Assembly: GCA_035252605.1 (NCBI GenBank)
Contig: DATFCZ010000123.1
Coordinates: forward strand, 6,632-70,631
Length of the DNA stretch: 64,000 nt
Direction of reading: 5' to 3'
From: Steroidobacteraceae bacterium
Lineage (GTDB): Bacteria; Pseudomonadota; Gammaproteobacteria; Steroidobacterales; Steroidobacteraceae
The position numbers and the translations under genes are program-made. Positions 3,956 through 19,915 of the stretch are shown here, piece by piece. Every line of letters begins with the position of its first letter. Within the stretch, counting starts at the first letter, position 1. The notes under the pieces are model-generated. The model made no database searches. It saw only the letters and a list, made by a program, of their open reading frames with translations, and was not told where the DNA came from.

Positions 3956-5212
3956 TCAGCCTCCGGCGAGCTCCGCCAGCCGGCGCTGCAGGAACTGCCG
4001 CTCGGGCTCGAGCTGCGTCAGGGCAAGCGCCCGCCCATAGGCCGCGCGCGCCTCGGCCCCTCTGCCCAGCCGGCGGCAGAGGTCGGCGCGCGCCGCATGC
4101 GCCAGCCGGTACTCGCTGAGCTCTCCCCTCTCGAGCAGGTCGTCCACGAGCTCAAGTCCCGCCGCCGGGCCATCGCGCATGGCGAGAGCCACCGCGCGGT
4201 TGAGCTCGATGATCGGGCTCGGCTCGATGCTGAGCAGCAGATCGTAGAGCGAGACGATCTCCTTCCAATCGGTGTCGGCGGCCCGGGGTGCCCGGCAATG
4301 GACCGCGCTGATCGCGGCCTGCAGCGTGTAGGGACCGAAGCGGCGGGTTGCCAGCGCCCGTCCCACCAGCGCCGACCCTTCCTCGATCTGCGCGCGGTTC
4401 CAGAGCGAGCGATCCTGCTCCTCGAGCACGATGAGCTCTCCTGCCCGGGAGGTGCGCGCGCCGCGCCGGGAATCGTGCAGCAGCATCAGCGCCAATAGCC
4501 CGATCGCCTCCGTCTCCGGCAGCATCTCGGTGAGCAGTCGCCCGAGGCGGATGGCCTCGCTCGCAAGATCGAGGCGCATGAGCTCCGTGCCGCTGCTTGC
4601 GATGTAGCCCTCGTTGAATACGAGATAGATGACCCGCAGGACCGACTCCAGGCGCGAGGACAGCTCGTCCGGTCCGGGCACTTCGTAAGGGATCCGCGCG
4701 TCGCGAATCTTCGCCTTGGCGCGCACGATCCGCTGCGCCAGGGTCGGTACGGGCGTCAGGAAAGCCTGCGCGATCTGCTCGGTGGTCAGGCCGCAGACTT
4801 CCCGTAGAGTCAGAGCCACCTGCGCGTCGGCGGCGAGCGCCGGATGACAGCAGGTGAAGATCAGCCGCAGCCGGTCATCCGCTACGCCGCTGCCCTCATC
4901 CTCCGCGGCAGGCTCGCTGGCGGCGGCATCGTGAGCGAGGGGGTCGAACGCCTCGAACCGAGCCTGGCGCCTCAGCTGATCGATGCTGCGAAACCGTCCG
5001 GCGGAGACCAGCCAGGCGCGAGGGTTGTCCGGCAGACCTTGCTCCGGCCACTTCTCGAGCGCGGCCCGGAAAGCATCGTGCAGAGCTTCTTCGGCCCGGT
5101 CGAAATCGCCGAGCAGCCGGATCAGGGTCGCGAGCACCGCGCGCGACTCGCTCTGATAGACGGCCTCGATGCGCCGCTTGATGTCCGGCTCGGGCATGGC
5201 GCTCTCTCTCAT
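3956..5212 (-). CDS. ECF-type RNA polymerase sigma factor with long C-terminal extension (SigJ-like)
   Basis: 418 aa. Sigma-70 region 2 (RAWLVSAGRFRSIDQLRR) and region 4 (LTLREVCGLTTEQIAQAFLTPVPTLAQRIVRAK) are followed by a helical/TPR-like tail of about 230 aa. Alternative start at 5197 (MPEPD). ATGA overlap with the mtnP stop if 5212 is used. Confidence 0.8.
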   Translation of the reverse strand: MRESAMPEPDIKRRIEAVYQSESRAVLATLIRLLGDFDRAEEALHDAFRAALEKWPEQGLPDNPRAWLVSAGRFRSIDQLRRQARFEAFDPLAHDAAASEPAAEDEGSGVADDRLRLIFTCCHPALAADAQVALTLREVCGLTTEQIAQAFLTPVPTLAQRIVRAKAKIRDARIPYEVPGPDELSSRLESVLRVIYLVFNEGYIASSGTELMRLDLASEAIRLGRLLTEMLPETEAIGLLALMLLHDSRRGARTSRAGELIVLEEQDRSLWNRAQIEEGSALVGRALATRRFGPYTLQAAISAVHCRAPRAADTDWKEIVSLYDLLLSIEPSPIIELNRAVALAMRDGPAAGLELVDDLLERGELSEYRLAHAARADLCRRLGRGAEARAAYGRALALTQLEPERQFLQRRLAELAGG

Positions 5213-6054
5213 TGCAACAGAAAGTCGAGCAACGCCTTCTGTTCCCGAGTCAACTGATCCCTCGGGGTCACCACCGCCGCCTCGAGCGCCCGCCGGCAGG
5301 GACGCGTCTCATCCTCCACGTACTCGGCCGCCACTGCCGCGATCAGCCGCTGCACCCGCCCCAGGCTCTCGCGGAACTGCCCGATCACCTGCTCCGCCGA
5401 CACATGCTGCGTGACATCATCCAGCCAGCAGTCGTAATCCGTCGCCACCGTAACGACGCAGTATCCCAACTGCGCCTCGAGCGCCAGAAACGCCTCGGGC
5501 ACATTGGTCATGCCCACCAGGTCCGCGCCCGCTGCTCGCAACCAGAAGCTCTCCGCGCGGGTCCCGAGCCTCGGTCCCTCGACACAGGCGTAGGTCTTGT
5601 CGCGATGGATCGGTTGGCCCAGGGTCTGCGCCACGCGAGCGATGAGGGCCGCCGTGTGAGCGCAGGTTGGGTGAGCGGTGGACACGTGCGCGACCAGCCC
5701 CCTGCCGAAGAAGCTCGCCGCGCGCAGGCCCTTGGTGAAATCGAGATACTGCGAGGGCAGCGCCAGGTCGCCGGGACGGATCTCCTCCCTGAGGCTCCCG
5801 ACGGCCGATACCCCGATGACGGTCCGCACCCCGACGCTCTTCAGCGCCCAGACGTTCGCCCGGAAATTGATCTCGCTCGGCAGCAGGTCGTGGTGCAGGC
5901 CATGCCGTGGCAGAAACGCGATCTCCCGCCCGGCCAGCCGGCCCAGCATGATCGGTCCCGAGGGATGCCCGAATGGCGTCTCGATCTCGCTCGAGCGGGT
6001 GACTTCGAGGCCTTCCATCCGGTAGAGACCGGTGCCGCCGACGATGCCGATCAT
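5209..6054 (-). CDS. mtnP: S-methyl-5'-thioadenosine phosphorylase
   Basis: PNP/MTAP family. IGIVGGTGLY phosphate loop at the N-terminus (start trimmed to ATG 6054) and GMTNVPEAFLA motif. Confidence 0.8.
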   Translation of the reverse strand: MIGIVGGTGLYRMEGLEVTRSSEIETPFGHPSGPIMLGRLAGREIAFLPRHGLHHDLLPSEINFRANVWALKSVGVRTVIGVSAVGSLREEIRPGDLALPSQYLDFTKGLRAASFFGRGLVAHVSTAHPTCAHTAALIARVAQTLGQPIHRDKTYACVEGPRLGTRAESFWLRAAGADLVGMTNVPEAFLALEAQLGYCVVTVATDYDCWLDDVTQHVSAEQVIGQFRESLGRVQRLIAAVAAEYVEDETRPCRRALEAAVVTPRDQLTREQKALLDFLLQ

Positions 6055-6340: not shown

Positions 6341-7924
6341 ATGAGCAGCCCCGGCCTCGACATCGCCTTCGAGCGGCGCCTGTCCGCGCTCGTCAACTGC
6401 GGTCAGCCCGAAATCCTCCAGGGCGGACGCAAGGGCCTCGAGAAGGAGTCGCTGCGCGTCACGCCGGAGGGGCGCCTCGTCCAGACGCCACATCCGCGCG
6501 CGCTCGGCTCGGCGCTCACCAGCGAGCACATCACGACCGATTATTCCGAGGCGTTGATCGAGCTCGTGACACCGACCTTCACCGCGACCTGGGAGCTGTT
6601 GCAGTACCTGCTCGATCTGCACCAGTTCGTTTACCGCCACCTCGGCAGCGAGCTGCTGTGGGCGACCAGCATGCCGGGGGCAATCTCCCGGGATGAGGAC
6701 ATCCCGATCGCTGACTACGGCCGCTCGCACATCGGGATGATGAAGACCGTCTACCGGCGCGGACTCGGGCTGCGATACGGCCGCATGATGCAGGCCATCT
6801 CGGGCGTGCACTTCAACTATTCCTTCCCGCTGCCCTTCTGGGAGACTTACGCCGATCTGCTCAAGTCCCGGGAGCGGGACGGCCCGTTCGTGTCCGCGCG
6901 ATACTTCGATCTGCTGCGCAACTACCGGCGCCACGGCTGGATTGTGCTGTATCTCTTCGGCATCTCGCCCGTGGTCTGCAAGTCCTTTCTCAAGGGACGC
7001 GACTACTCGCTTCGAGATTTCACCGCCGATACCGCCTACGAGCCCTATGGGACCAGTCTCAGGATGAGCGACATCGGCTACCGCAACCGCAACCAGGCGG
7101 ATCTCACGGTCTCCGTCAACAGCCTGGAGGAGTACGTTCGCGATCTGACTCACGCCATCACGACCCCGCATCCGCCCTATGAGGCGCTCGGCGTCAAGGT
7201 CAAGGGCGAGTACCGGCAGCTCAACGCCAACATCCTGCAGATTGAGAACGAGTACTACAGCTTCATCCGTCCGAAGCGCGTGGCCCGCTCCGGCGAGCGG
7301 CCGACCAAGGCGCTCACGCGCGCCGGCGTCGAGTACGTCGAAGTGCGGGCACTCGATGTGAGCGCCTTCGATCCCGTGGGCGTCAATCAGAACAAGCTGC
7401 GCTTCCTCGAGGCCTTTCTCGCCCTCTGCCTGCTGAAGGACAGCCCCATGATCGGCGCCGAGGAGCAGCGCTCGCTCGATCAGAACCATCTGACGGTGGC
7501 CCGCCGCGGACGTGAGCCCGGGCTCACGCTCTGGCGGGACGGACGCAATGTTCCGATGCGCGAGTGGGCACGGGAGCTCATCGACTCGCTCACCGGTATC
7601 TGCGAGATTCTCGACCGGGGCGATGCTTCCCGGCCCTATTCGGCGGCGCTCGCCGACCAGAGGGCCAAGGTCGAGGATGTGGGGCTCACGCCCTCGGCGC
7701 GCATGATGGAGGATCTCACCGACAGCGGCGAGCCGTTCTTCGACCTCGCGCTGCGGATGTCGGCGACCCACAAGGACTATTTCCTCGATCTTTACCCGCC
7801 GAACGAGGCGCGCCTGAAGGAGTTCGCGAGCGAGGCCGAGGAGTCCCTCGCCCGTCAGCGGGCGATCGAGGCGGCCGATCGCGGCAGCTTCGATGAGTTC
7901 CTGGCGCGCTACTTCAAGGATTGA
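6341..7924 (+). CDS. gshA: Glutamate--cysteine ligase (proteobacterial type)
   Basis: 527 aa, full-length resemblance to GshA (GVHFNYSFP, YFDLLRNYRRHGWIVLYLFGISP, VEYVEVRALD). Confidence 0.9.
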   Translation: MSSPGLDIAFERRLSALVNCGQPEILQGGRKGLEKESLRVTPEGRLVQTPHPRALGSALTSEHITTDYSEALIELVTPTFTATWELLQYLLDLHQFVYRHLGSELLWATSMPGAISRDEDIPIADYGRSHIGMMKTVYRRGLGLRYGRMMQAISGVHFNYSFPLPFWETYADLLKSRERDGPFVSARYFDLLRNYRRHGWIVLYLFGISPVVCKSFLKGRDYSLRDFTADTAYEPYGTSLRMSDIGYRNRNQADLTVSVNSLEEYVRDLTHAITTPHPPYEALGVKVKGEYRQLNANILQIENEYYSFIRPKRVARSGERPTKALTRAGVEYVEVRALDVSAFDPVGVNQNKLRFLEAFLALCLLKDSPMIGAEEQRSLDQNHLTVARRGREPGLTLWRDGRNVPMREWARELIDSLTGICEILDRGDASRPYSAALADQRAKVEDVGLTPSARMMEDLTDSGEPFFDLALRMSATHKDYFLDLYPPNEARLKEFASEAEESLARQRAIEAADRGSFDEFLARYFKD

Positions 7925-11323: not shown

Positions 11324-13267
11324 TCACTTCACCACGAACTTGTGCTCGTGCATACCCTGCGCGATCTGGCCGATGAGCCGCGGCCAGTTGACGCGGCGGA
11401 CATTGCCGATGATATCGAGACGCGGGAGTCCGCTGCCCTTCACCAGATAATAACCCCCATCCGGTGCGGGTCCCACGCCCGACATGGCACAGACCTCGTT
11501 CTGCAGGCGGCAGCCGATCCCAATGCGAGAGTAGTGGAAGGTGTGGAAGAACCTGAGCACGCCGGATTCCAGCGCCGCCGTCACCGCCCCGGCGGAGCCG
11601 CCGAGACCGGCGATGCGCGTAACCGCGTTCTGGTTGATCCGATGCGGGGAGCGGTCGCCCGGCATGGTGTAGAGCCGCGCGTCGAAGGCGACCGGCGACC
11701 AGTCGAAGAGCTGCAGACCGCGTACGTCGATATCGACGCGGCCGGTCATGGAGCCGAAGGCGAACGTGTGGGTGAGGAGGTCGAGGTCGAGGCGGCGCGC
11801 GAGCACATCGGCCGAAAGACTCGGCCACGGACCGAGGGGATTCTCGAGCACGATGTGGCTGCCGGTGATGACGCCATCGAACACCTTCGCGACGAGGTCA
11901 CCGTCGAAGGTCAACTCATGGTTGCGGTAGCGCACCAGGGGAATATGGCCCGAGAGCGTCCCGTTCATCACCGGCCAGCCGAAGGCCGCGGATAACCGCG
12001 GCATGCTGATCGGGGTGACATCGGCATCGAAGTCGAGCTTCGCCTGCGGGGTGCCGAGATCCCGACCGACCAGCGTGCGCACGATGACGGCGCCATCGAG
12101 GACCGGCAGGCGCGAGTTGCCGCCGAGCAGTGCGAAGTTGCGCTGCCAAGTCACGAATCGCAACCGCACCGGGCCGCCGCTCAAGCCGTACACGGCGGCG
12201 CGCTGCCACGTGAGCCCGGAGGGAGCGATTGCAGCACCGGAGGCGGCTGCCCAGTGGATCTCGCCGCTCGCGCGCTGTATCAGCAGCCGCGCATCCGGGG
12301 CGGTGAAGCTCACATCGTGCAGCGCGCCGTCGAACCGGGTGAGCGCATCGTGCCCGATCTCGAGCGATCCGCTCGCTTCACCGCTGCTCTGGAGCGAGCC
12401 GAGCTCGGTCGTGGCGAGCGCGAGCTGCAGATAGCTCGTGTATGCCGCCGGGAAATGCAGGCTCGAGATCGTTACCCGCGCGGTCAGAATATCGGGGTGC
12501 GGGGTCAGCTGCACGACGCCCTGCGCGGTTGCCCGCATCAGGTTTTGCTGCTCGAGCCGCAGCCAGGACACGAGGAGCGGTCCGTCGCCGTTGCGCTGCA
12601 GGCTGGCATCGAGCGTAAGCGGATTGGCGGCGAAGTCGAGGAGCGCCGGTCCCGCGAGCGCCTGGCCGCCTGAGGCCTTCACATGCGCAGAGACGGTGCG
12701 GGTGGTCCCATGCCGCACCAGCGCGCCTGACAGCGCCGCCGCCACCTGTTGGGCGACTATCGTGCCCGACTGATTGGTCAGGCTGAGATCGGAGCTACGC
12801 GCCTCGACCTGCAACGTCTGCGCGCGATGGCCCGTCAGAGACATTTCCAAGTCCGCGTGGCCGGAGATCTGGTATCCCGCGGGTAGTTTCAGCCATGGCC
12901 GCGCGATCCGGGCTGCCTGAGTGAGATCGATCGCGGTGGCGCGCGCTTTGAGACTCCAGCCTCGAGGCCGGAGCACGGCGGCGATGTTCAGCCGGCCGCC
13001 GGCCAGGGGCAGGTCCGTGACTTCGATCCTCCACGTGCGGCCGCGGGGCTCGAAGTGTCCTGATATTGCGGCCGAGAGTAGCGCGGATGCGCCGGCGGGC
13101 GCCGCCAGCGCTGCTGGAGGCACGGGTCCGTCGATCGCCCTCGCGGACTCTCCGACCGCGAGGGCGGTCAGCGCCGCGGCCAATGCCAGCGCCGCGATCA
13201 GGCGGCCGCCGCCACGGCGTGCCAGCATCGCGGACACCAGCCACCTCCTCAAAGCCCGACCCGACAT
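11324..13267 (-). CDS. YdbH-like AsmA-family intermembrane transport protein
   Basis: 647 aa. N-terminal membrane anchor, long beta-rich body, and a C-terminal segment (YYLVKGSGLPRLDIIGNVRRVNWPRLIGQI) resembling the DctA-YdbH domain. Synteny with the ydbL-like gene. Confidence 0.6.
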   Translation of the reverse strand: MSGRALRRWLVSAMLARRGGGRLIAALALAAALTALAVGESARAIDGPVPPAALAAPAGASALLSAAISGHFEPRGRTWRIEVTDLPLAGGRLNIAAVLRPRGWSLKARATAIDLTQAARIARPWLKLPAGYQISGHADLEMSLTGHRAQTLQVEARSSDLSLTNQSGTIVAQQVAAALSGALVRHGTTRTVSAHVKASGGQALAGPALLDFAANPLTLDASLQRNGDGPLLVSWLRLEQQNLMRATAQGVVQLTPHPDILTARVTISSLHFPAAYTSYLQLALATTELGSLQSSGEASGSLEIGHDALTRFDGALHDVSFTAPDARLLIQRASGEIHWAAASGAAIAPSGLTWQRAAVYGLSGGPVRLRFVTWQRNFALLGGNSRLPVLDGAVIVRTLVGRDLGTPQAKLDFDADVTPISMPRLSAAFGWPVMNGTLSGHIPLVRYRNHELTFDGDLVAKVFDGVITGSHIVLENPLGPWPSLSADVLARRLDLDLLTHTFAFGSMTGRVDIDVRGLQLFDWSPVAFDARLYTMPGDRSPHRINQNAVTRIAGLGGSAGAVTAALESGVLRFFHTFHYSRIGIGCRLQNEVCAMSGVGPAPDGGYYLVKGSGLPRLDIIGNVRRVNWPRLIGQIAQGMHEHKFVVK

Positions 13268-13401: not shown

Positions 13402-14694
13402 ATGGCGCAAAAGCGGGCGTTGATCGTCGATGACTCGAGGTCGGCGCGTCTCTTCCTCGCGCGCATTCTCGAGAAGCACGACATCGAAGTCGACAGCGTG
13501 GAGAGCGCCGAGGCGGCGATCGGTTACCTGGCGAGCAGGCGGCCGGATGTCATCTTCATGGACCATCTGATGCCCGGCATGGATGGCTTTCAGGCCGTGC
13601 GCGCCATCAAGAACGACCCCCGCACGGCCACCATCCCCATCATGATGTACACGTCCCAGGAAGGGGAGGTCTACCTCGGGCAAGCGCGTGCGTTGGGCGC
13701 GATCGGCGTGTTGCCGAAGCAAATCAAGCACGCCGATGTCTCGAAGGTGCTCTACCAGCTTCATCTGATCGCCGACCGTCGCACTGAAGAGCAGACGACT
13801 TTCAAGCCGCTCGAGTCGGTCATGCAGGCCGCCACCACGGAGGCGGGCGACGCCGTACCCGCGCGCCCGCTCGCGACCCATGCGCGCGCCTCTGTGTCGG
13901 GCTCTGCCGCCGAGACGGAATCCCTCGAGGGACCCTCCTCACTCCGTCGCTGGTTGCAGGCCAGTCTCGACTCCCAGGCAGAGCGCATCCTGGCCGAGAT
14001 CCACGCGCTGCCGCCGTCGCGCGTTCCACGCAGCTCCGGCTGGCTGGCCGCACTCACGATCCTCGCCTGCGCCGCCGCCCTGGTCGCGACCGGACTGTGG
14101 TGGAGTGATCGCACCCGGCTGCAGCTGGCTGCAGCGGAGCTGGCGCAGCTGCGCCAGGCTGTCGCTGCGCGTCCGGTCGCCGTGCCCCCGGCTGCTGCGG
14201 CGGCAGGGGTCGTCGCAGCGCAGAGCGCGGCCGCACCGGTGCTGCCCAAGCCCATTGTGCTCGATGTGCCCTACGGCGCCGATGCGCTCGGCGGCTCGCG
14301 CCTGACCGTGATCCGGCAGGTGCTGCAGCGCCTGATTGCGGATCACGTGAGCGGCGTGGTGGAGATCCGCGCCTTTGCCGGCCGGTTCTGCCTCAAGGGT
14401 GATCCCGTCGACGGCTACGCTCTCGCGCCGGCCAAAACTCCCTTCGCACAGTGCGACGTGGTCGGCAACCCCGCCGATGACGCCCTGCCGCCGGCGCAGC
14501 GCATGCCGCTCGCGCTCGCCAACCTCATCGGCGAGATCCGCGACTCCACCCACGGAGCGCTGGACGTTGAGACCTCGGTGGGCGATCCTGCCAATATCCG
14601 AGTGGCGTATCCTCCGGTCAGTGACGATCTGACGGCAGGCGAATGGAACCGAGCCGGCAAAGCCAACAACCGAGTCGAGATTCTGGTGCGTTGA
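13402..14694 (+). CDS. Response-regulator receiver protein with TM helix and periplasmic OmpA-like C-terminal domain
   Basis: N-terminal CheY-like REC (LIVDDS...DVIFMDHLMPGMDG...MYTS). One predicted TM helix (WLAALTILACAAALVATGLWW). The C-terminus ends NNRVEILVR, resembling the OmpA/MotB NRRVEI signature. The REC call is solid; the OmpA-like call is tentative. Confidence 0.8.
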   Translation: MAQKRALIVDDSRSARLFLARILEKHDIEVDSVESAEAAIGYLASRRPDVIFMDHLMPGMDGFQAVRAIKNDPRTATIPIMMYTSQEGEVYLGQARALGAIGVLPKQIKHADVSKVLYQLHLIADRRTEEQTTFKPLESVMQAATTEAGDAVPARPLATHARASVSGSAAETESLEGPSSLRRWLQASLDSQAERILAEIHALPPSRVPRSSGWLAALTILACAAALVATGLWWSDRTRLQLAAAELAQLRQAVAARPVAVPPAAAAAGVVAAQSAAAPVLPKPIVLDVPYGADALGGSRLTVIRQVLQRLIADHVSGVVEIRAFAGRFCLKGDPVDGYALAPAKTPFAQCDVVGNPADDALPPAQRMPLALANLIGEIRDSTHGALDVETSVGDPANIRVAYPPVSDDLTAGEWNRAGKANNRVEILVR

Positions 14695-15731: not shown

Positions 15732-16153
15732 GGCGCCCGACGCTCGGCTCTTCGGTGCTCGTGGTGGCGCTTCTCGTCGAAGTGCAGCACCGGTTCTCCG
15801 CCCGTGACTGTCATGTCACCGTCCACCACCGCACCGCGCGCAATCGCTACGGCGTGCGCCACGATGTCGGCGTGAATCACCGCAGACGCGCCGATCTCGA
15901 GCTTCCCTTCGACGACCAGCCTGCCGCTGAAGCGGCCGGCGATGATCGCCGCGCCGGCATGGACTTCGCCTTCCCACTGCGCCTCCTGCGTGAGACTCAG
16001 TGCGCCGCCGATGTGACCGTCGCCGCGCACCGAGCCGCAAAGGAGCAACGGGCCTTCGGTTTCCACATCGCCCGTCAGCCGGCAGCCCGCCGCCACGAAC
16101 GTGGGTGAGCCTCCGAGGCGATCGAGCAGTCGGCGTTTGGGTGCTTCGCTCAT
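15728..16153 (-). CDS. Bactofilin family polymer-forming cytoskeletal protein
   Basis: Start trimmed to ATG 16153 (MSEAPK...). The repetitive beta-helix pattern (G.V.G.L.V.G.V.G) is typical of the bactofilin/DUF583 domain. Confidence 0.75.
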   Translation of the reverse strand: MSEAPKRRLLDRLGGSPTFVAAGCRLTGDVETEGPLLLCGSVRGDGHIGGALSLTQEAQWEGEVHAGAAIIAGRFSGRLVVEGKLEIGASAVIHADIVAHAVAIARGAVVDGDMTVTGGEPVLHFDEKRHHEHRRAERRAP

Positions 16154-16347
16154 GGTCCGACGATGATAGAGGCAGCTCTCTCGCAGATGTCGGTGAGATT
16201 CACGTACCGTGCGGCAGGTCCGATTGCGCCGCTGCCAAACGCCGGTGCCACAAGCGGCCAGCCGTCGGTCACAACCTGACACGGCACGTCACCCCGGTGG
16301 AGCGAGGGTGAGCTACCTAACGCATTGATTTTACTATGGATCCCCGC

Positions 16348-16364
16348 CTGGCACGCCCTTTGCT
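16348..16364 (+). promoter_or_regulatory. Sigma-54 (-24/-12) promoter
   Basis: CTGGCACG-CCCT-TTGCT is an exact match to YTGGCACG-N4-TTGCW (GG at 16350-16351, GC at 16362-16363). Intergenic, on the plus strand, with no downstream ORF. Confidence 0.6.
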
Positions 16365-16374
16365 CCAACTGGTG

Positions 16375-16483
16375 CAGGCGCCGCCTCTGCGAGGCGACGC
16401 CGTGGAACTGCGAACAACTTCCCCGGTGTTCGCGTAACTCCCGCGCCGCGATGCGCCTTCCCCCGCTCGCGGCGCTTTTTTTT
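16375..16483 (+). ncRNA. Candidate sigma-54-dependent small RNA (about 110 nt, three hairpins, intrinsic terminator)
   Basis: Predicted TSS is about 12 nt after the -12 GC. Hairpins at 16377-16401, 16410-16433 (loop ACTTCCCCGG) and 16443-16475 (loop CCTTCCCC), then T8. There is no credible coding potential. The 5' end is inferred, not observed. Confidence 0.45.
16443..16483 (+). terminator. Rho-independent terminator (plus strand)
   Basis: GCGCCGCGA / TCGCGGCGC 9-bp GC stem (plus inner GCG/CGC pairs) followed by eight T (16476-16483). The minus-strand reading has an A-tract before the stem and no U-tract after it. Confidence 0.7.
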
Positions 16484-16566
16484 GGCGCACCCGCCAGCGC
16501 CGGGCGCGGCTCGCCAGGAAACCGAACGGCCCTGGGCCGCTTCGTTACCTGCTGTTGGAGTTCTTG

Positions 16567-18723
16567 TTAGGTGAGCATGGCGACGTCGAGCTTGCCGGAG
16601 CGCCGCTCGACGTTGAGACCGACCGTTCCGGAATAGCGGTACAGCGTCAGATCCACCGAGCTCTCGCCCACCTGCAGAGAACGGATGGAGACCCGCTCCA
16701 CGCGCGGCGGCAGCTGCGGATAGCGGAAGGCGATTTGCCCCGCCGCCGCATCGACGGTGAGCCCGAGACAGGCCTGCAACATGGCGAATACGGCCGCGGC
16801 CGACCACGCCTGCGGCGAGCAGGCCACCGGGTAGCTGGTCGGCGCCTTGCCCTCGCGGCGGCGAAAGCCGCAGAAAAGCTCCGGCAGTCGGCCGGACTCG
16901 AAGTAGGTCGAGGCGTCGAGCTGCGCCGACAGAATCCTGACGGCCAGCTCCTTGGCGGAGGAGCCGGCGAGGCCCGCCGCAATCACCGCGTTGTCGTGCG
17001 GCCAGACCGAGCCGTTGTGATAGGCCATTGGGTTGTAGAGAGCCTCGCGGTCGGCAACCGTGCGCACGCCCCAGCCGGTGAAGAAAGTGTCCTGTCCCAG
17101 CATCCGCGCAATCGACTCGGCATGCTCCGGCGCAGCGATGCCGGAGAAGAGACAGTGTCCCGCGTTCGAGGCCCGCACCCGGCAGGGCTCCTTGTAACCA
17201 TCGAGCGCGAGCGCATACAGCCCGAGCTCCGGACACCAGAAGCGGGCGCGAAATCGCTCCCGAAGCGAGTGTGCCTGCTCGCGCAGAGTCCTTGCCATGT
17301 CGTCATGCCCCAGCGCCTGAGCGAGGGCCGCCGCTGCCAGGCGCGCGGCATACGTGTAGGCCTGCACCTCGCAGAGCGCGATCGGCCCTTCCGCCAGACG
17401 CCCGTCGGCGTGGAACACGGAGTCGTTCGAGTCCTTCCAGCCCTGCTGCGCGAGCCCGTGGGGCGAGCGGCGCTGGTACTCGATGAAGCCGTCGCCGTCC
17501 CGATCGCCATAACGATCGATCCAACCGAGGGCCGCGCCTATGTTGGGCCAGATCGTCTCGATGAAGGCGAGGTCGTCGGTGCGCCGCCAGTACTCTCCGG
17601 CCAACAGCACGTAAAGCGATGTCGCATCGATGCTGCCGTAATAGCGGCCGAACGGCACTTCCCCGAGCGCCGCCATCTCGCCGCGGCGCGCCTCGTGCAG
17701 GATCTTGCCGGGCTCGGCGTCATGCTCCGGCTGATCCCGGGTCGCCTGCGTCGCCGCCAGGAATGAAAGCACGCCGCGGGAGATCTGCGGCGCCAGCCAC
17801 AAACACTCGAGTGCCGTGATGATGCCGTCACGGCCGAAGGTGGTATCGAACCACGGCACGCCCGCGTACGGATAAAGTCCGGAGCTCGTCTCCGTGAGCA
17901 ACATGTTGAGATCGGCGGCGGAGCGGGTCATCCAGGCGTTCATCTGGTCATTGGAGGTCTCGATGCCGCAGACGAGCCGCGCGCCGCTCGCCCGCGACTG
18001 CTCCGCGCGGACCACGGCCGCCGGGAAGCTCATGGCGGCCGGGCGCTCGCCATCGATCGCGCAGGTGACCTTCACCTCGAACACCTGCTCCGAGCGCCCC
18101 TCCAGGCGCGCGCCGAGCTGCAGCTCCCCGCCCGAAATGCGCCGCGGACGCGGCTGACATTCGATCAGCGTCCGTCGCGCCACGCCGTCGAGCCCCTGGT
18201 AGGCGAGCTCCGCCCGATCCTCCGTCACCCGGGGCTTGCGCAGCTGCCCTCGTTGCCGGCGCTCCTCGCCGCGCACCTCGAAGATGTCGGCGAAATCAGC
18301 CGAGAACTCGAGTGTCAGCGCGATATCGAGCGGCGTGCGCGTGAAATTGCGCACGTGCAGGTGCTCGTAGCAGACGGCCCCCCAGATGAGCTTCGAGCGG
18401 TAGATGTGGAGCGAGCCGCGAGGCAGCATCATGTTGCCGCCGAGATAGATATCGGGATTGGTGAGGTCCACCCCCATCAGCAGATTGTCGCGGCGCACGG
18501 CCGAAGAGAGCAGCAGCGGGCGTCCGCCGACGAGCTTGAGCGCGAGACGCGACAGAAAGCGCGTGCCCTGGTGATAAAGTCCCTCCTCGTGGCGCGCGCC
18601 GGCCGCGATATCGCCGAAGTCGTTGAAAAGGCCGAACGTGTCGCCGTCCTTGAGCACGAACGTGCGCTCCGGCACCGGAACCTCGGGCGCCAGGATGTAG
18701 AACTCGGTTGCCGCCGTGTTCAC
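16567..18723 (-). CDS. Amylo-alpha-1,6-glucosidase / glycogen-debranching-enzyme-like protein (GDE_N_bis + GDE_C)
   Basis: About 718 aa. The GVPWFDTTFGRDGIIT motif and (alpha/alpha)6-barrel-type C-terminal region are typical of the bacterial GDE_C family. Start set at GTG 18723, which forms a GTGA overlap with the upstream glycosyltransferase stop. Confidence 0.8.
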   Translation of the reverse strand: MNTAATEFYILAPEVPVPERTFVLKDGDTFGLFNDFGDIAAGARHEEGLYHQGTRFLSRLALKLVGGRPLLLSSAVRRDNLLMGVDLTNPDIYLGGNMMLPRGSLHIYRSKLIWGAVCYEHLHVRNFTRTPLDIALTLEFSADFADIFEVRGEERRQRGQLRKPRVTEDRAELAYQGLDGVARRTLIECQPRPRRISGGELQLGARLEGRSEQVFEVKVTCAIDGERPAAMSFPAAVVRAEQSRASGARLVCGIETSNDQMNAWMTRSAADLNMLLTETSSGLYPYAGVPWFDTTFGRDGIITALECLWLAPQISRGVLSFLAATQATRDQPEHDAEPGKILHEARRGEMAALGEVPFGRYYGSIDATSLYVLLAGEYWRRTDDLAFIETIWPNIGAALGWIDRYGDRDGDGFIEYQRRSPHGLAQQGWKDSNDSVFHADGRLAEGPIALCEVQAYTYAARLAAAALAQALGHDDMARTLREQAHSLRERFRARFWCPELGLYALALDGYKEPCRVRASNAGHCLFSGIAAPEHAESIARMLGQDTFFTGWGVRTVADREALYNPMAYHNGSVWPHDNAVIAAGLAGSSAKELAVRILSAQLDASTYFESGRLPELFCGFRRREGKAPTSYPVACSPQAWSAAAVFAMLQACLGLTVDAAAGQIAFRYPQLPPRVERVSIRSLQVGESSVDLTLYRYSGTVGLNVERRSGKLDVAMLT

Positions 18724-19817
18724 GCTCTCTGCCGACACCAGCGCGCCTCGCAATTGCGATAGATGGAGCAGTACTCGCGCGCCATGCGCGCGGCGCTGAA
18801 GCGGCGCTCGAACTGTTGCCGACATCTCCTGCGGTCGAGCTGCCGCGCCTGCTCGATGCAGGCGACCGCCTCGTCGACGCTCGATACGACGAAGCCGGTG
18901 ATCCCCGGGTCCACGACTTCCGCAACCGAGCCCCGGTCGAATGCTATCACGGGCGTGCCGCAGGCCATTGCCTCGATCATCGCGAGACCGAAGGGCTCCG
19001 GCCAGTCGATGGGAAAGAGCAGGGCGAGCGCGCCACGAAGCAGCTCCGACTTGGCGCTCTCGTCGATCTCACCCAGGTACTCGACACCGGGAGCGGCAAG
19101 CAGCGGCCTGATCTTTAGGGCAAAATAGTCCCGATCCGAGACGTCGATCTTGGCCGCGATCTTGAGCGGCAGACCCGCGCGCTGCGCGATGGCGATGGCG
19201 CGGTCCAACCGCTTCTCGGGCGAGATGCGCCCGAGGAACACGAGGTAGTTTCCCGCGTCATAGTTCGGACGGTGCAGCTCGAGGGGCAGACCATGATGGA
19301 CCGTTCCCGCCCAGCTCGCCCAGGGAATCGGCGCGCGCTGGGAATCGGAGATCGATACCAGCGGCAGCTCCGGGAACTCGCCGTGAAGGCAGGCGAGCGC
19401 GGCGATGTCGAGTCGACCGTGCAGAGTCGTGACGACCGGTACCGCGCAACGTCTGGCGAGCGGGAGATGAACACTGTCGATATGGCAATGGATGACGTCA
19501 AAAAGGTCGGCGCGCCCGAACACCGTCTCAACGAGCAGCGCATGCAGCGCGACGGCGGCCGTTGGCTCGCGCTCGAGGCGCACTGCGCGGTCGCAGACCG
19601 GCACGAGCTCGGCGGAAGTGCGCGAGTCCCCGCTTGCAAAGAGCGTCACCCGATGTCCCTGCCGCACCAGCTCCTCGGTGAGATACGACACCACGCGCTC
19701 GGTGCCGCCGTAGAGCTTTGGAGGAACACTTTCGTACAGCGGCGCCACCTGAGCGATGCGCAAGCTCGTGTTCCGTGCACACATCGCCGCTGGTACAGCA
19801 AACCGTATTCCCGTCAC
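18720..19817 (-). CDS. Glycosyltransferase family 4 (GT-B, GT1 domain)
   Basis: RIAQVAPLYESVPPKLYGGTERVVSYLTEELVRQGHRVTLFASGDS N-terminal GT4 pattern and C-terminal EPFGLAMIEAMACGTPVIA motif. Alternative start at 19784. Confidence 0.85.
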   Translation of the reverse strand: MTGIRFAVPAAMCARNTSLRIAQVAPLYESVPPKLYGGTERVVSYLTEELVRQGHRVTLFASGDSRTSAELVPVCDRAVRLEREPTAAVALHALLVETVFGRADLFDVIHCHIDSVHLPLARRCAVPVVTTLHGRLDIAALACLHGEFPELPLVSISDSQRAPIPWASWAGTVHHGLPLELHRPNYDAGNYLVFLGRISPEKRLDRAIAIAQRAGLPLKIAAKIDVSDRDYFALKIRPLLAAPGVEYLGEIDESAKSELLRGALALLFPIDWPEPFGLAMIEAMACGTPVIAFDRGSVAEVVDPGITGFVVSSVDEAVACIEQARQLDRRRCRQQFERRFSAARMAREYCSIYRNCEARWCRQRA

Positions 19818-19915
19818 GCGCGTCTCTCATTCTCGTGATCGGTCCTGCGCAACCGCCCGTCTCGCCCGAACCGGCGCCGGGCTCTCGGTCCGCGGCCCTG
19901 GCGCCGCGGCGCCTC

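Follow-up and report, generated by a model that had tools for sequence, protein, structure and literature searches.

A conserved gene for a small non-coding RNA (sRNA) is predicted in the window analysed here, a stretch of 64 000 nt from a Steroidobacteraceae bacterium (assembly GCA_035252605.1, contig DATFCZ010000123.1). The element lies on the plus strand of a 413-nt intergenic gap that extends from the start codon of a bactofilin gene (Pfam PF04519; ATG at 16153) to the stop codon, at 16567, of a gene for a GDE-type amylo-alpha-1,6-glucosidase; both genes are on the minus strand. A first-pass annotation of this DNA had proposed here an RNA of ∼110 nt with its own sigma-54 promoter and intrinsic terminator. 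Open reading frame (ORF) and Pfam evidence agree with its account of the gap, and its coordinates of the promoter, of three hairpins and of a T8 run were all exact when the sequence was re-read (Table 1). Judged by comparison of related loci, the element is a genuine, conserved gene, and the interpretation given to it at first pass was essentially right. The comparisons establish the predicted gene anatomy, its conservation, the non-coding nature of the RNA in the lineage of the window and the presence of a single copy in the window. Overall, the gene probably encodes an enhancer-dependent, trans-acting sRNA of ∼108 nt that would silence mRNAs through its CUUCCCC loops, acting on G-rich or Shine-Dalgarno (SD) sites.

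Table 1. Predicted features of the sRNA gene, in order along the window
Feature	Sequence	Position	Strand	Remark
Candidate upstream activator sequence (UAS)	GTCACAACCTGACACGGCACGTCAC, GTC(A)-N-TGAC-N7-GTCAC	16268-16292	+	Sequence only; centre ∼95 nt 5′ of the predicted start
A/T-rich IHF-like element	TAACGCATTGATTTT	16318-16332	.	∼50 nt 5′ of the start, between enhancer and promoter
Sigma-54 (−24/−12) promoter	TGGCACGCCCTTTGCT	16349-16364	+	Exact consensus, single in the window
Predicted primary transcript		16375-16483	+	∼105-109 nt, non-coding; start deduced from the −12 GC at 16362-16363, end in T8
Hairpin 1, stem-loop 1 (SL1)	GGCGCCGCCTC/GAGGCGACGCC	16377-16401	+	One C.A mismatch; loop UGC, not C-rich
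Hairpin 2 (SL2)	GCGAACA/TGTTCGC; DNA loop ACTTCCCCGG, RNA loop ACUUCCCCGG	16410-16433	+	
Candidate seed in SL2	CUUCCCC	16418-16424	+	
Hairpin 3 (SL3), terminator stem	GCGCCGCGA/TCGCGGCGC, inner GCG/CGC; DNA loop CCTTCCCC	16443-16475	+	
Candidate seed in SL3	CUUCCCC	16457-16463	+	
U-tract of the predicted intrinsic terminator	T8	16476-16483	+	

The promoter-like sequence, CTGGCACGCCCTTTGCT at 16348-16364 of the plus strand, had been called an exact sigma-54 promoter, and the match is indeed a rare one. The motif TGGCAC-N5-TTGCW occurs once in 64 kb, both strands included, with 0.01 matches expected; the relaxed motif TGGYAY-N5-TTGC has a single match in the window as well. A simple promoter and terminator scanner, uninformative at this element because of its loop rule, found no sigma-70 promoter. 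Relatives were collected from metagenomes by a promoter-blind scan, whose query consisted of only the 3′ half of SL2 and the 5′ arm of SL3. The scan gave at least 120 loci, and TGG[CT]A[CT]-N5-TTGC was present upstream in 116 of the 120 loci listed; among the other four, two are on contigs too short upstream to judge and two are chance matches. The association of the promoter with the RNA is thus not an artefact of the way the loci were collected.

Loci reached via the glucosidase gave a consistent picture. The glucosidase of the window (a 752-aa ORF; 723 aa in the annotated protein form) is 100% identical to a Steroidobacteraceae protein from a metagenome-assembled genome (MAG) and has hundreds of homologues from soil metagenomes. 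In four distinct syntenic loci (glucosidase identity 71-92%), the promoter, SL2, SL3 and the T-run are almost unchanged, while the remaining intergenic sequence diverges; all five syntenic loci reached via this flanking protein have the promoter. A scan of GTDB species genomes, with the promoter and two CTTCCCC motifs as the pattern, produced 36 loci. The same element was found in 24 of them, all from Steroidobacteraceae or unclassified gammaproteobacterial MAGs. The other 12 were set aside as chance or unrelated matches, as the family model fails at the pattern sites; they come from Roseomonas, Anaeromyxobacter, Nocardia, Novosphingobium, Verrucomicrobiota, Planctomycetota, Latescibacterota, Flavobacteriaceae, Myxococcota, Acidoferrum and a betaproteobacterium.

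Taken over the matches listed, the family has ∼120 relatives in Steroidobacteraceae MAGs and soil metagenomes, all in one genomic slot. A covariance model, R1, was built from 17 close relatives. It matches the plus strand of the window at 16373-16487 with 120.4 bits (E = 1.5e-27); the next match in the window, on the reverse strand, has 22 bits and the rest have at most 14 bits, so the element is in single copy there. A run of at least four Ts lies within 12 nt 3′ of SL3 in 87 of 91 distinct relatives among the matches listed. The proposal of a gene with its own promoter and terminator is supported by the orthologous loci, which keep the promoter, SL2, SL3 and the U-tract. One could still ask if a promoter-like string and a few hairpins came together by chance in a GC-rich intergenic region that holds no gene, hairpins being abundant in GC-rich genomes. 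To this we give practically no credence: besides the low expected number of promoter matches, the orthologous copies have the promoter, the enhancer, the loops and the U-tract at constant distances amid diverging intergenic sequence, and the comparative data effectively refute such an origin.

The region upstream of the promoter is conserved as well. The tripartite GTC(A)/TGAC/GTCAC site has its sole exact match in the window at the candidate UAS. Of 107 distinct relatives, 95 have the pattern GTC-N6-TGAC-N7-GTCA (102 with relaxed half-sites), always 81-88 nt before TGGCAC and alike in the short, intermediate and long forms of the gene described below. We take the tripartite site as the putative enhancer, to which a sigma-54 activator would bind. 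The motif, GTCA-N5-TGAC-N7-GTCAC, was not assignable to any known activator; in form it is presumably nearest to the FleQ box (GTCA-N6-TGAC), a resemblance that offers no more than a lead. Read on the minus strand, the A/T-rich element between enhancer and promoter is AATCAATGCGTTA, in accord with the IHF consensus WATCAANNNNTTR. The motif AAG-N(3-5)-TG(A/T)TT is located 29-32 nt before TGGCAC in 105 of the 107 relatives; just eight have the exact IHF consensus and most have one mismatch. An activator site, a bend site and a −24/−12 promoter, if correctly read, are the textbook layout of enhancer-dependent sigma-54 transcription. Dependence of the gene on sigma-54 and an activator is, on this evidence, very probable.

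The 110-nt RNA is predicted to fold into the three hairpins with −53.8 kcal/mol (z = −4.7); none of 200 shuffled sequences folded as well. Written as RNA, SL3 has the outer stem GCGCCGCGA/UCGCGGCGC and the loop CCUUCCCC. The first-pass annotation had singled out the two CUUCCCC loops as exposed seeds, a view that both prediction and comparison support. The mean probability of being unpaired is 0.78 and 1.0 for the two motifs (1.0 being that of SL3) and at least 0.99 for the last five bases of the SL2 loop. In the promoter-blind scan, in which this motif was not specified, CUUCCCC was found in the SL3 loop of 81 of the 91 distinct sequences among the matches listed. The GC-rich stem of SL3 (9 + 3 bp) directly before T8 has the form of an intrinsic terminator; the simple scanner did not flag it because the bulged stem breaks the loop rule of that program.

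No coding function is apparent in the window RNA. The plus-strand ORF at 16325-16570, which had been described as non-coding, reads across the terminator and is not kept in the relatives, which differ in length by non-multiples of three. A tiny ORF of 11 codons (GTG GAA ... TAA) was also considered and dropped, as it shows no conservation in relatives.

For covariation analysis, 99 family members (98 distinct sequences) were aligned to R1. Paired cells make up 92.9% (83.3% in shuffles), the covariation score is 0.217 (0.080 in shuffles; 0 of 500 shuffles reached 0.217), and two-sided changes are seen in 274 cells (93 in shuffles). The signal is distributed unevenly. Compensatory changes occur at all 10 pairs of SL1, and the inner helix of SL3 covaries: two of its pairs have AU in place of GC, in 19 and 11 sequences respectively. 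A loop that is kept over a covarying inner stem is the pattern expected of a single-stranded seed. SL2 is nearly invariant in all relatives, even when these were collected without specifying its stem, and so is the outer stem of SL3; since the two helices never vary, they have support from conservation and none from covariation. Of the conservation and compensatory changes that the first-pass annotation proposed to look for in relatives, the former was seen for the promoter, SL2 and SL3 and the latter for SL1 and the inner helix of SL3.

The 5′ part of the RNA differs widely among relatives. By the distance from promoter to SL2, the matches listed fall into three classes: short (38-76 nt; 75 loci, the window included), intermediate (95-148 nt; 8 loci) and long (226-265 nt; 33 loci). 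The smallest members, such as L082 and L109, lack SL1 and consist of SL2 and SL3 alone (73-77 nt); other members have one hairpin or longer structured leaders 5′ of the core. The sequence and length of SL1 vary between subclades, though a hairpin still forms in most. SL1 in the window is thus a variable, dispensable module, and not the core part of the RNA that had been assumed at first pass. In two divergent loci (L127 and L104) SL3 lacks the CUUCCCC loop, and a UUUCCCCU loop is found in the variable 5′ hairpin; C-rich loops seem to shift in position but not in number.

In the long form, found in a sister clade, a conserved ORF of 60-61 codons (MARSTVTLILPHAQGVASMRPAMAGMLVKRRRGGSVMF...KVSR) precedes SL2-SL3. 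The ORF is near-leaderless, opening a few nucleotides past the predicted transcription start (e.g. in L071, minus strand, about 4,900-5,240, and in L085, L060 and L100), and its product follows the pattern MARSTVTLILP.AQGVAS.RP..AGM.V.RRRGG...IDARLARAQLAAI...KVSR. Nucleotide diversity at codon positions 1, 2 and 3 is 0.083, 0.046 and 0.248. This is a clear coding signature, by which the long form is to be read as a bona fide mRNA. A third CTTCCCC is located inside the ORF and is kept at synonymous sites. The small protein forms 172 clusters, every one annotated as hypothetical; searches of Pfam and NCBIfam (E ≤ 1) and of PDB sequences gave no match, it is not a DUF1127 protein, and its AlphaFold2 model is of low confidence (predicted local distance difference test, pLDDT, 55). 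The ORF was not found in the window or in any short-form locus. In the long form, SL2-SL3 may be released from the mRNA by RNase E at the CCUCAAAAAGAACU linker.

Searches with Rfam 15 returned no family at gathering score, either for the window or for ten related loci, in agreement with the novelty claimed for the RNA. Below the threshold, the best matches were those to ar14 and CcsR1: the window RNA scored 29.3 bits with ar14 (RF02344; E = 3e-4, gathering score 58.8), 20.6 bits with CcsR1 (RF02791; E = 0.003, gathering score 65.3) and 16.3 bits with sX13 (RF02232; E about 0.28-1, i.e. chance level; gathering score 50). Among relatives, ar14 reached 35.8 bits, aligned hairpin for hairpin, and 26.8 bits; sX13 reached 20 bits on L044. 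Other sub-threshold matches (TCV_Pr, ncS54, suhB, narK and others) were treated as noise.

The RNAs ar14, NfeR and CcsR are known as cuckoo RNAs. They carry anti-SD hairpin loops with CCUCCUCCC, and in part of the family an RpoHI/HII promoter drives them together with the upstream gene for CcaF1, a small Arg-rich DUF1127 protein that binds the RNAs (PMC8034643). By prediction, the window RNA shares with ar14/NfeR1 and CcsR1-4 a length of ∼80-120 nt, a build of consecutive hairpins, C-rich anti-SD-type apical loops, a last hairpin that serves as terminator, and an alternative-sigma promoter. The layout of an sRNA at the 3′ end of the mRNA of a small basic protein is also shared, there in part of the family and here in the sister clade. 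There are also differences. By definition, every hairpin loop of a cuckoo RNA bears the anti-SD motif CCUCCUCCC (PMC8034643, PMC4615179), whereas the motif here is CUUCCCC, in the loops ACUUCCCCGG and CCUUCCCC, and just two of three loops are C-rich. Cuckoo RNAs are alphaproteobacterial, with RpoHI/HII or sigma-70 promoters, while the present RNA belongs to Steroidobacteraceae and has a predicted sigma-54 promoter with an enhancer and an IHF-like site. Finally, CcsR/CIN1 adjoins a DUF1127 gene, whereas the window has no small upstream ORF and the protein of the sister clade is of another kind.

A second point of comparison is sX13, an Hfq-independent RNA of ∼115 nt with three stem-loops and CCCC/CCCCC loops that represses mRNAs with G-rich motifs (PMC3771888); sX13 and RepG have been described as analogues of the cuckoo RNAs without demonstrable homology (PMC4615179). 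The window RNA also has three stem-loops and aligns across the full sX13 model in cmscan, at the chance-level score given above. All three loops of sX13 contain 4C/5C; here CCCC is present in two of three, those of SL2 and SL3, a partial correspondence. In contrast to the present RNA, sX13 is constitutive, always downstream of polA and confined to Xanthomonadaceae (PMC3771888); the present RNA occupies the bactofilin/SPOR-to-M16 slot in Steroidobacteraceae and has a sigma-54 promoter. By analogy, it would work like the cuckoo and sX13 RNAs, yet in score, neighbourhood and host clade it falls outside both groups, and in loop motif outside the cuckoo RNAs as well.

In gene architecture the closest parallels are the sigma-54 sRNA genes Qrr (with LuxO), GlmY/GlmZ (GlrR and IHF), NrsZ (NtrC) and CrcZ/CrcY (CbrB), which have an activator site, an IHF-type bend, a −24/−12 promoter and a terminator; such an architecture makes the sRNA an output of one signalling pathway. 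They differ in the seed, a single-stranded region there and C-rich hairpin loops here, and none of Qrr, GlmY/GlmZ, NrsZ and CrcZ has any sequence relation to the window RNA or gave an Rfam match to it even at E ≤ 10. The transcript of the sister clade carries both an ORF and an sRNA module, as in SgrS/SgrT, RNAIII/hld, GlnZ from glnA and CcsR from ccaF1. Unlike these dual-function and 3′-UTR (3′ untranslated region) sRNAs, the window copy has no ORF, has its own promoter and is a predicted primary transcript. In the literature we found no described sigma-54 sRNA with C-rich loops of relevance to Steroidobacteraceae. By these comparisons, the window RNA is a new RNA family, a predicted anti-SD-type hairpin sRNA under sigma-54 and enhancer control.

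The coding form raises the question of a protein partner. The hairpins could be a recognition module by which the RNA is bound, matured or titrated, as a sponge or as a partner, in the way that CcsR is bound by Arg-rich CcaF1; the 60-aa KRRRGG protein would be the natural candidate. Invariance of the SL2 stem, the outer SL3 stem and the loops over wide divergence speaks for such a module, and so does its co-transcription with a conserved basic protein in the sister clade, which repeats the ccaF1-CcsR layout (PMC8034643). However, the gene for the small protein is not present in the window or in the short-form loci, and the protein itself has the low-confidence model and the lack of database matches noted above. 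We know of no bacterial RNA-binding protein that recognises C-rich loops, which also counts against this explanation. We regard it as improbable; it is moreover compatible with base pairing and does not exclude it. A further-reaching idea is that SL2-SL3 is the RNA half of a gammaproteobacterial counterpart of CcaF1-CcsR, a sigma-54-controlled global translational regulator partnered with a new 60-aa basic protein, at a locus that toggled between a dual-function mRNA and a pure sRNA. This idea is speculative, and we consider it unlikely.

The gene neighbourhood bears on a further question, namely if the RNA is free-standing. The shared slot consists of genes for a response regulator, an alpha/beta hydrolase and bactofilin (minus strand), usually a SPOR protein gene (plus), the RNA (plus), in some loci the GDE glucosidase and a GT4 glycosyltransferase (minus), and a pair of M16 peptidase genes (plus). 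Identities of the flanking proteins to those of the window drop to about 52% (bactofilin) and 60% (M16_A). With M16 genes on the same strand, the RNA might be a cis-acting leader or attenuator of a sigma-54 operon, or a vestige of one: the promoter would ancestrally have served the small ORF and/or the M16 genes, SL2-SL3 with the U-tract would terminate conditionally, and insertion of the GDE-GT4 genes would have cut the window copy off from M16. The RNA is directly upstream of, and co-oriented with, M16_A/M16_B in 14 of 26 loci from the protein and genome scans, and the same arrangement is seen in most metagenome loci that are long enough. In the long form, a true mRNA by its coding signature, M16_A starts ∼40-60 nt past an interrupted U-tract (GCTTTTCTTTTC).

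Against a leader function, the window and at least 11 other loci have the convergent GDE gene after the terminator, where there is nothing to attenuate, and the promoter, the enhancer, SL2 and SL3 are equally conserved in them. In short forms, 125-300 nt separate the terminator from M16_A, which has its own CATAAT-like −10 sequence directly before the start codon. The terminator of the window appears strong (9 + 3 bp GC stem with U8), and no alternative anti-terminator fold is apparent. A leader or a vestige of one is accordingly an improbable explanation. Equal conservation of the RNA with a convergent (GDE) or a co-oriented (M16) downstream gene argues for an autonomous RNA rather than a leader, and against a role as a cis-antisense RNA. 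A cis-antisense relation to read-through from the GDE and GT4 genes into the bactofilin gene had been suggested at first pass; as a function, the plus-strand RNA would pair with this minus-strand read-through or collide with its transcription. Both flanks in the window are indeed on the minus strand, and the stretch from the GDE stop codon to the element showed no detectable terminator on that strand. Yet the arrangement is specific to one lineage. Most relatives have other neighbours, with the same-strand SPOR gene upstream and, in many, the co-oriented M16 genes and no GDE gene downstream, and a conserved antisense function is hence very hard to credit. We consider a stand-alone sRNA likely; the leader and the protein-partner explanations are its main rivals and concern mainly the sister clade.

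Two observations on the slot concern the neighbouring genes. The GDE glucosidase and GT4 glycosyltransferase genes (window 16567-19817, minus strand) behave as a module that is either present or absent, convergent to the RNA and located precisely between its terminator and the M16 genes; this suggests repeated gain or loss at one spot in several subclades. The SPOR gene is located on the plus strand between bactofilin and the RNA in most relatives and is missing from the window (16154-16267) and from L002, L013, L017, L020, L021 and L041. Where it is missing, as in the window, the RNA is directly divergent from the bactofilin gene.

With the trans-acting sRNA as the preferred reading, the following mechanism can be proposed. 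Sigma-54 RNA polymerase would bind TGGCAC-N5-TTGC (16349-16364) and initiate solely once a signal-activated enhancer-binding ATPase, encoded elsewhere in the genome, acts on it. The activator would sit on the GTCA/TGAC site (16268-16292) and be looped to the promoter with the help of the IHF-like element (16318-16332). Transcription would start at ∼16375 and stop at SL3 and U8, at ∼16483, giving a free-standing RNA because the next downstream gene in the window is convergent. The functional core would be the invariant SL2-SL3 with CUUCCCC in each apical loop. These loops would pair in trans with ribosome-binding sites of the GGGGAAG, GGGGAGG or GGGAGG type, and so keep ribosomes off a set of mRNAs for as long as the signal of the activator is present. 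Calculated duplex energies for CUUCCCC are −11.2 kcal/mol with GGGGAAG, −10.9 with GGGGAGG, −8.4 with GGGAGG and −5.1 with GGAGG. This pairing is suggested by analogy and by conservation of the loops, and we would put its chances at about even.

Several points weigh against this reading. We infer the start, the end and the rpoN dependence of the transcript from sequence. Neither the window, as had already been remarked for enhancer-binding proteins, nor the ∼8-10 kb around the element in the 28 loci scanned (26 of them family members) contains a GAFTGA-type activator gene, and a motif scan of the same range found no RpoN box in the window or in any fetched locus; the activator should thus be encoded elsewhere in the genome. 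CUUCCCC is a poorer anti-SD sequence than the cuckoo motif CCUCCUCCC, the duplex with GGAGG being the weakest of the four calculated. A search near start codons gave no convincing target in the 64-kb window, where GGGGAAG does not occur at any ribosome-binding site. Invariance extends beyond the loops to the SL2 stem and the outer SL3 stem, which is more than a pure seed model needs and hints at recognition by a protein. Part of this invariance is a matter of ascertainment, since R1 itself guided the alignment of the 98 sequences and the patterns used for collection already specified stretches of SL2 and SL3; in the 17 closest sequences alone, covariation does not exceed that of shuffles. The sister-clade transcript that ends in the module codes for a protein and lies ∼50 nt before an M16 gene; there the module may have a cis-acting or protein-linked role.

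If the reading holds, the gene would add a sigma-54 sRNA from Steroidobacteraceae, an abundant and almost uncultured soil lineage. To our knowledge, few sRNAs are wired to sigma-54 and an enhancer-binding protein. Qrr, GlmY, NrsZ and CrcZ each carry out the post-transcriptional part of an important signalling pathway. The anatomy of the predicted gene is unusually clean and complete, with enhancer, IHF-like site, promoter, seed loops and terminator all represented, and the gene would join two designs not previously known in combination, anti-SD loops of the cuckoo/sX13 kind and sigma-54 control. At one orthologous slot, the 3′ module exists in four states: (i) alone, (ii) after a variable hairpin, (iii) after longer structured leaders and (iv) after a small-protein ORF. 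These states provide a ready comparative series on modular sRNA evolution and on transitions between coding and non-coding transcripts; should the module be a counterpart of CcaF1-CcsR, the series would show in nature how a protein-coding transcript can give rise to an sRNA or be outlived by it. With the covariance model and the UAS motif, complete MAGs could be searched for the activator and the regulon.

A few observations were made in passing. The first M16 gene appears to be leaderless or nearly so: a conserved CGCGTCATAATGCGGAC stands directly before its ATG in L145, L146, L147 and L161, and the window has a similar TCTCATTCTCGTG before a GTG start at ∼19815-19845. In L073, two tandem GC-rich units of ∼97 nt (…GGCGATTTCGGC.GAGTTGC…CCCGGGG(G)AAAAAGCGTGGTTTTTCCCGCT…) are located ∼20-230 nt 3′ of the RNA terminator, ahead of M16_A; the unit may be REP-like (repetitive extragenic palindromic) or a duplicated element. 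Two proteins of the window are kept in the syntenic block beside the RNA locus: a 430-aa response regulator (13402-14694, plus strand) with a receiver domain followed by ∼300 residues without a Pfam match, and a 647-aa protein (11324-13267, minus strand) with no Pfam match. Finally, L025, from an uncultured betaproteobacterium MAG, contains TGGCACGGTGGTTGC and, 3′ of it, three CTTCCCC motifs and a GC hairpin with T8 (7103-7250, plus strand). The family model does not match this candidate, its fold is no better than that of shuffles (z = −1.4) and it has no Rfam match; it could be an independent sigma-54 sRNA with C-rich motifs or a chance match.

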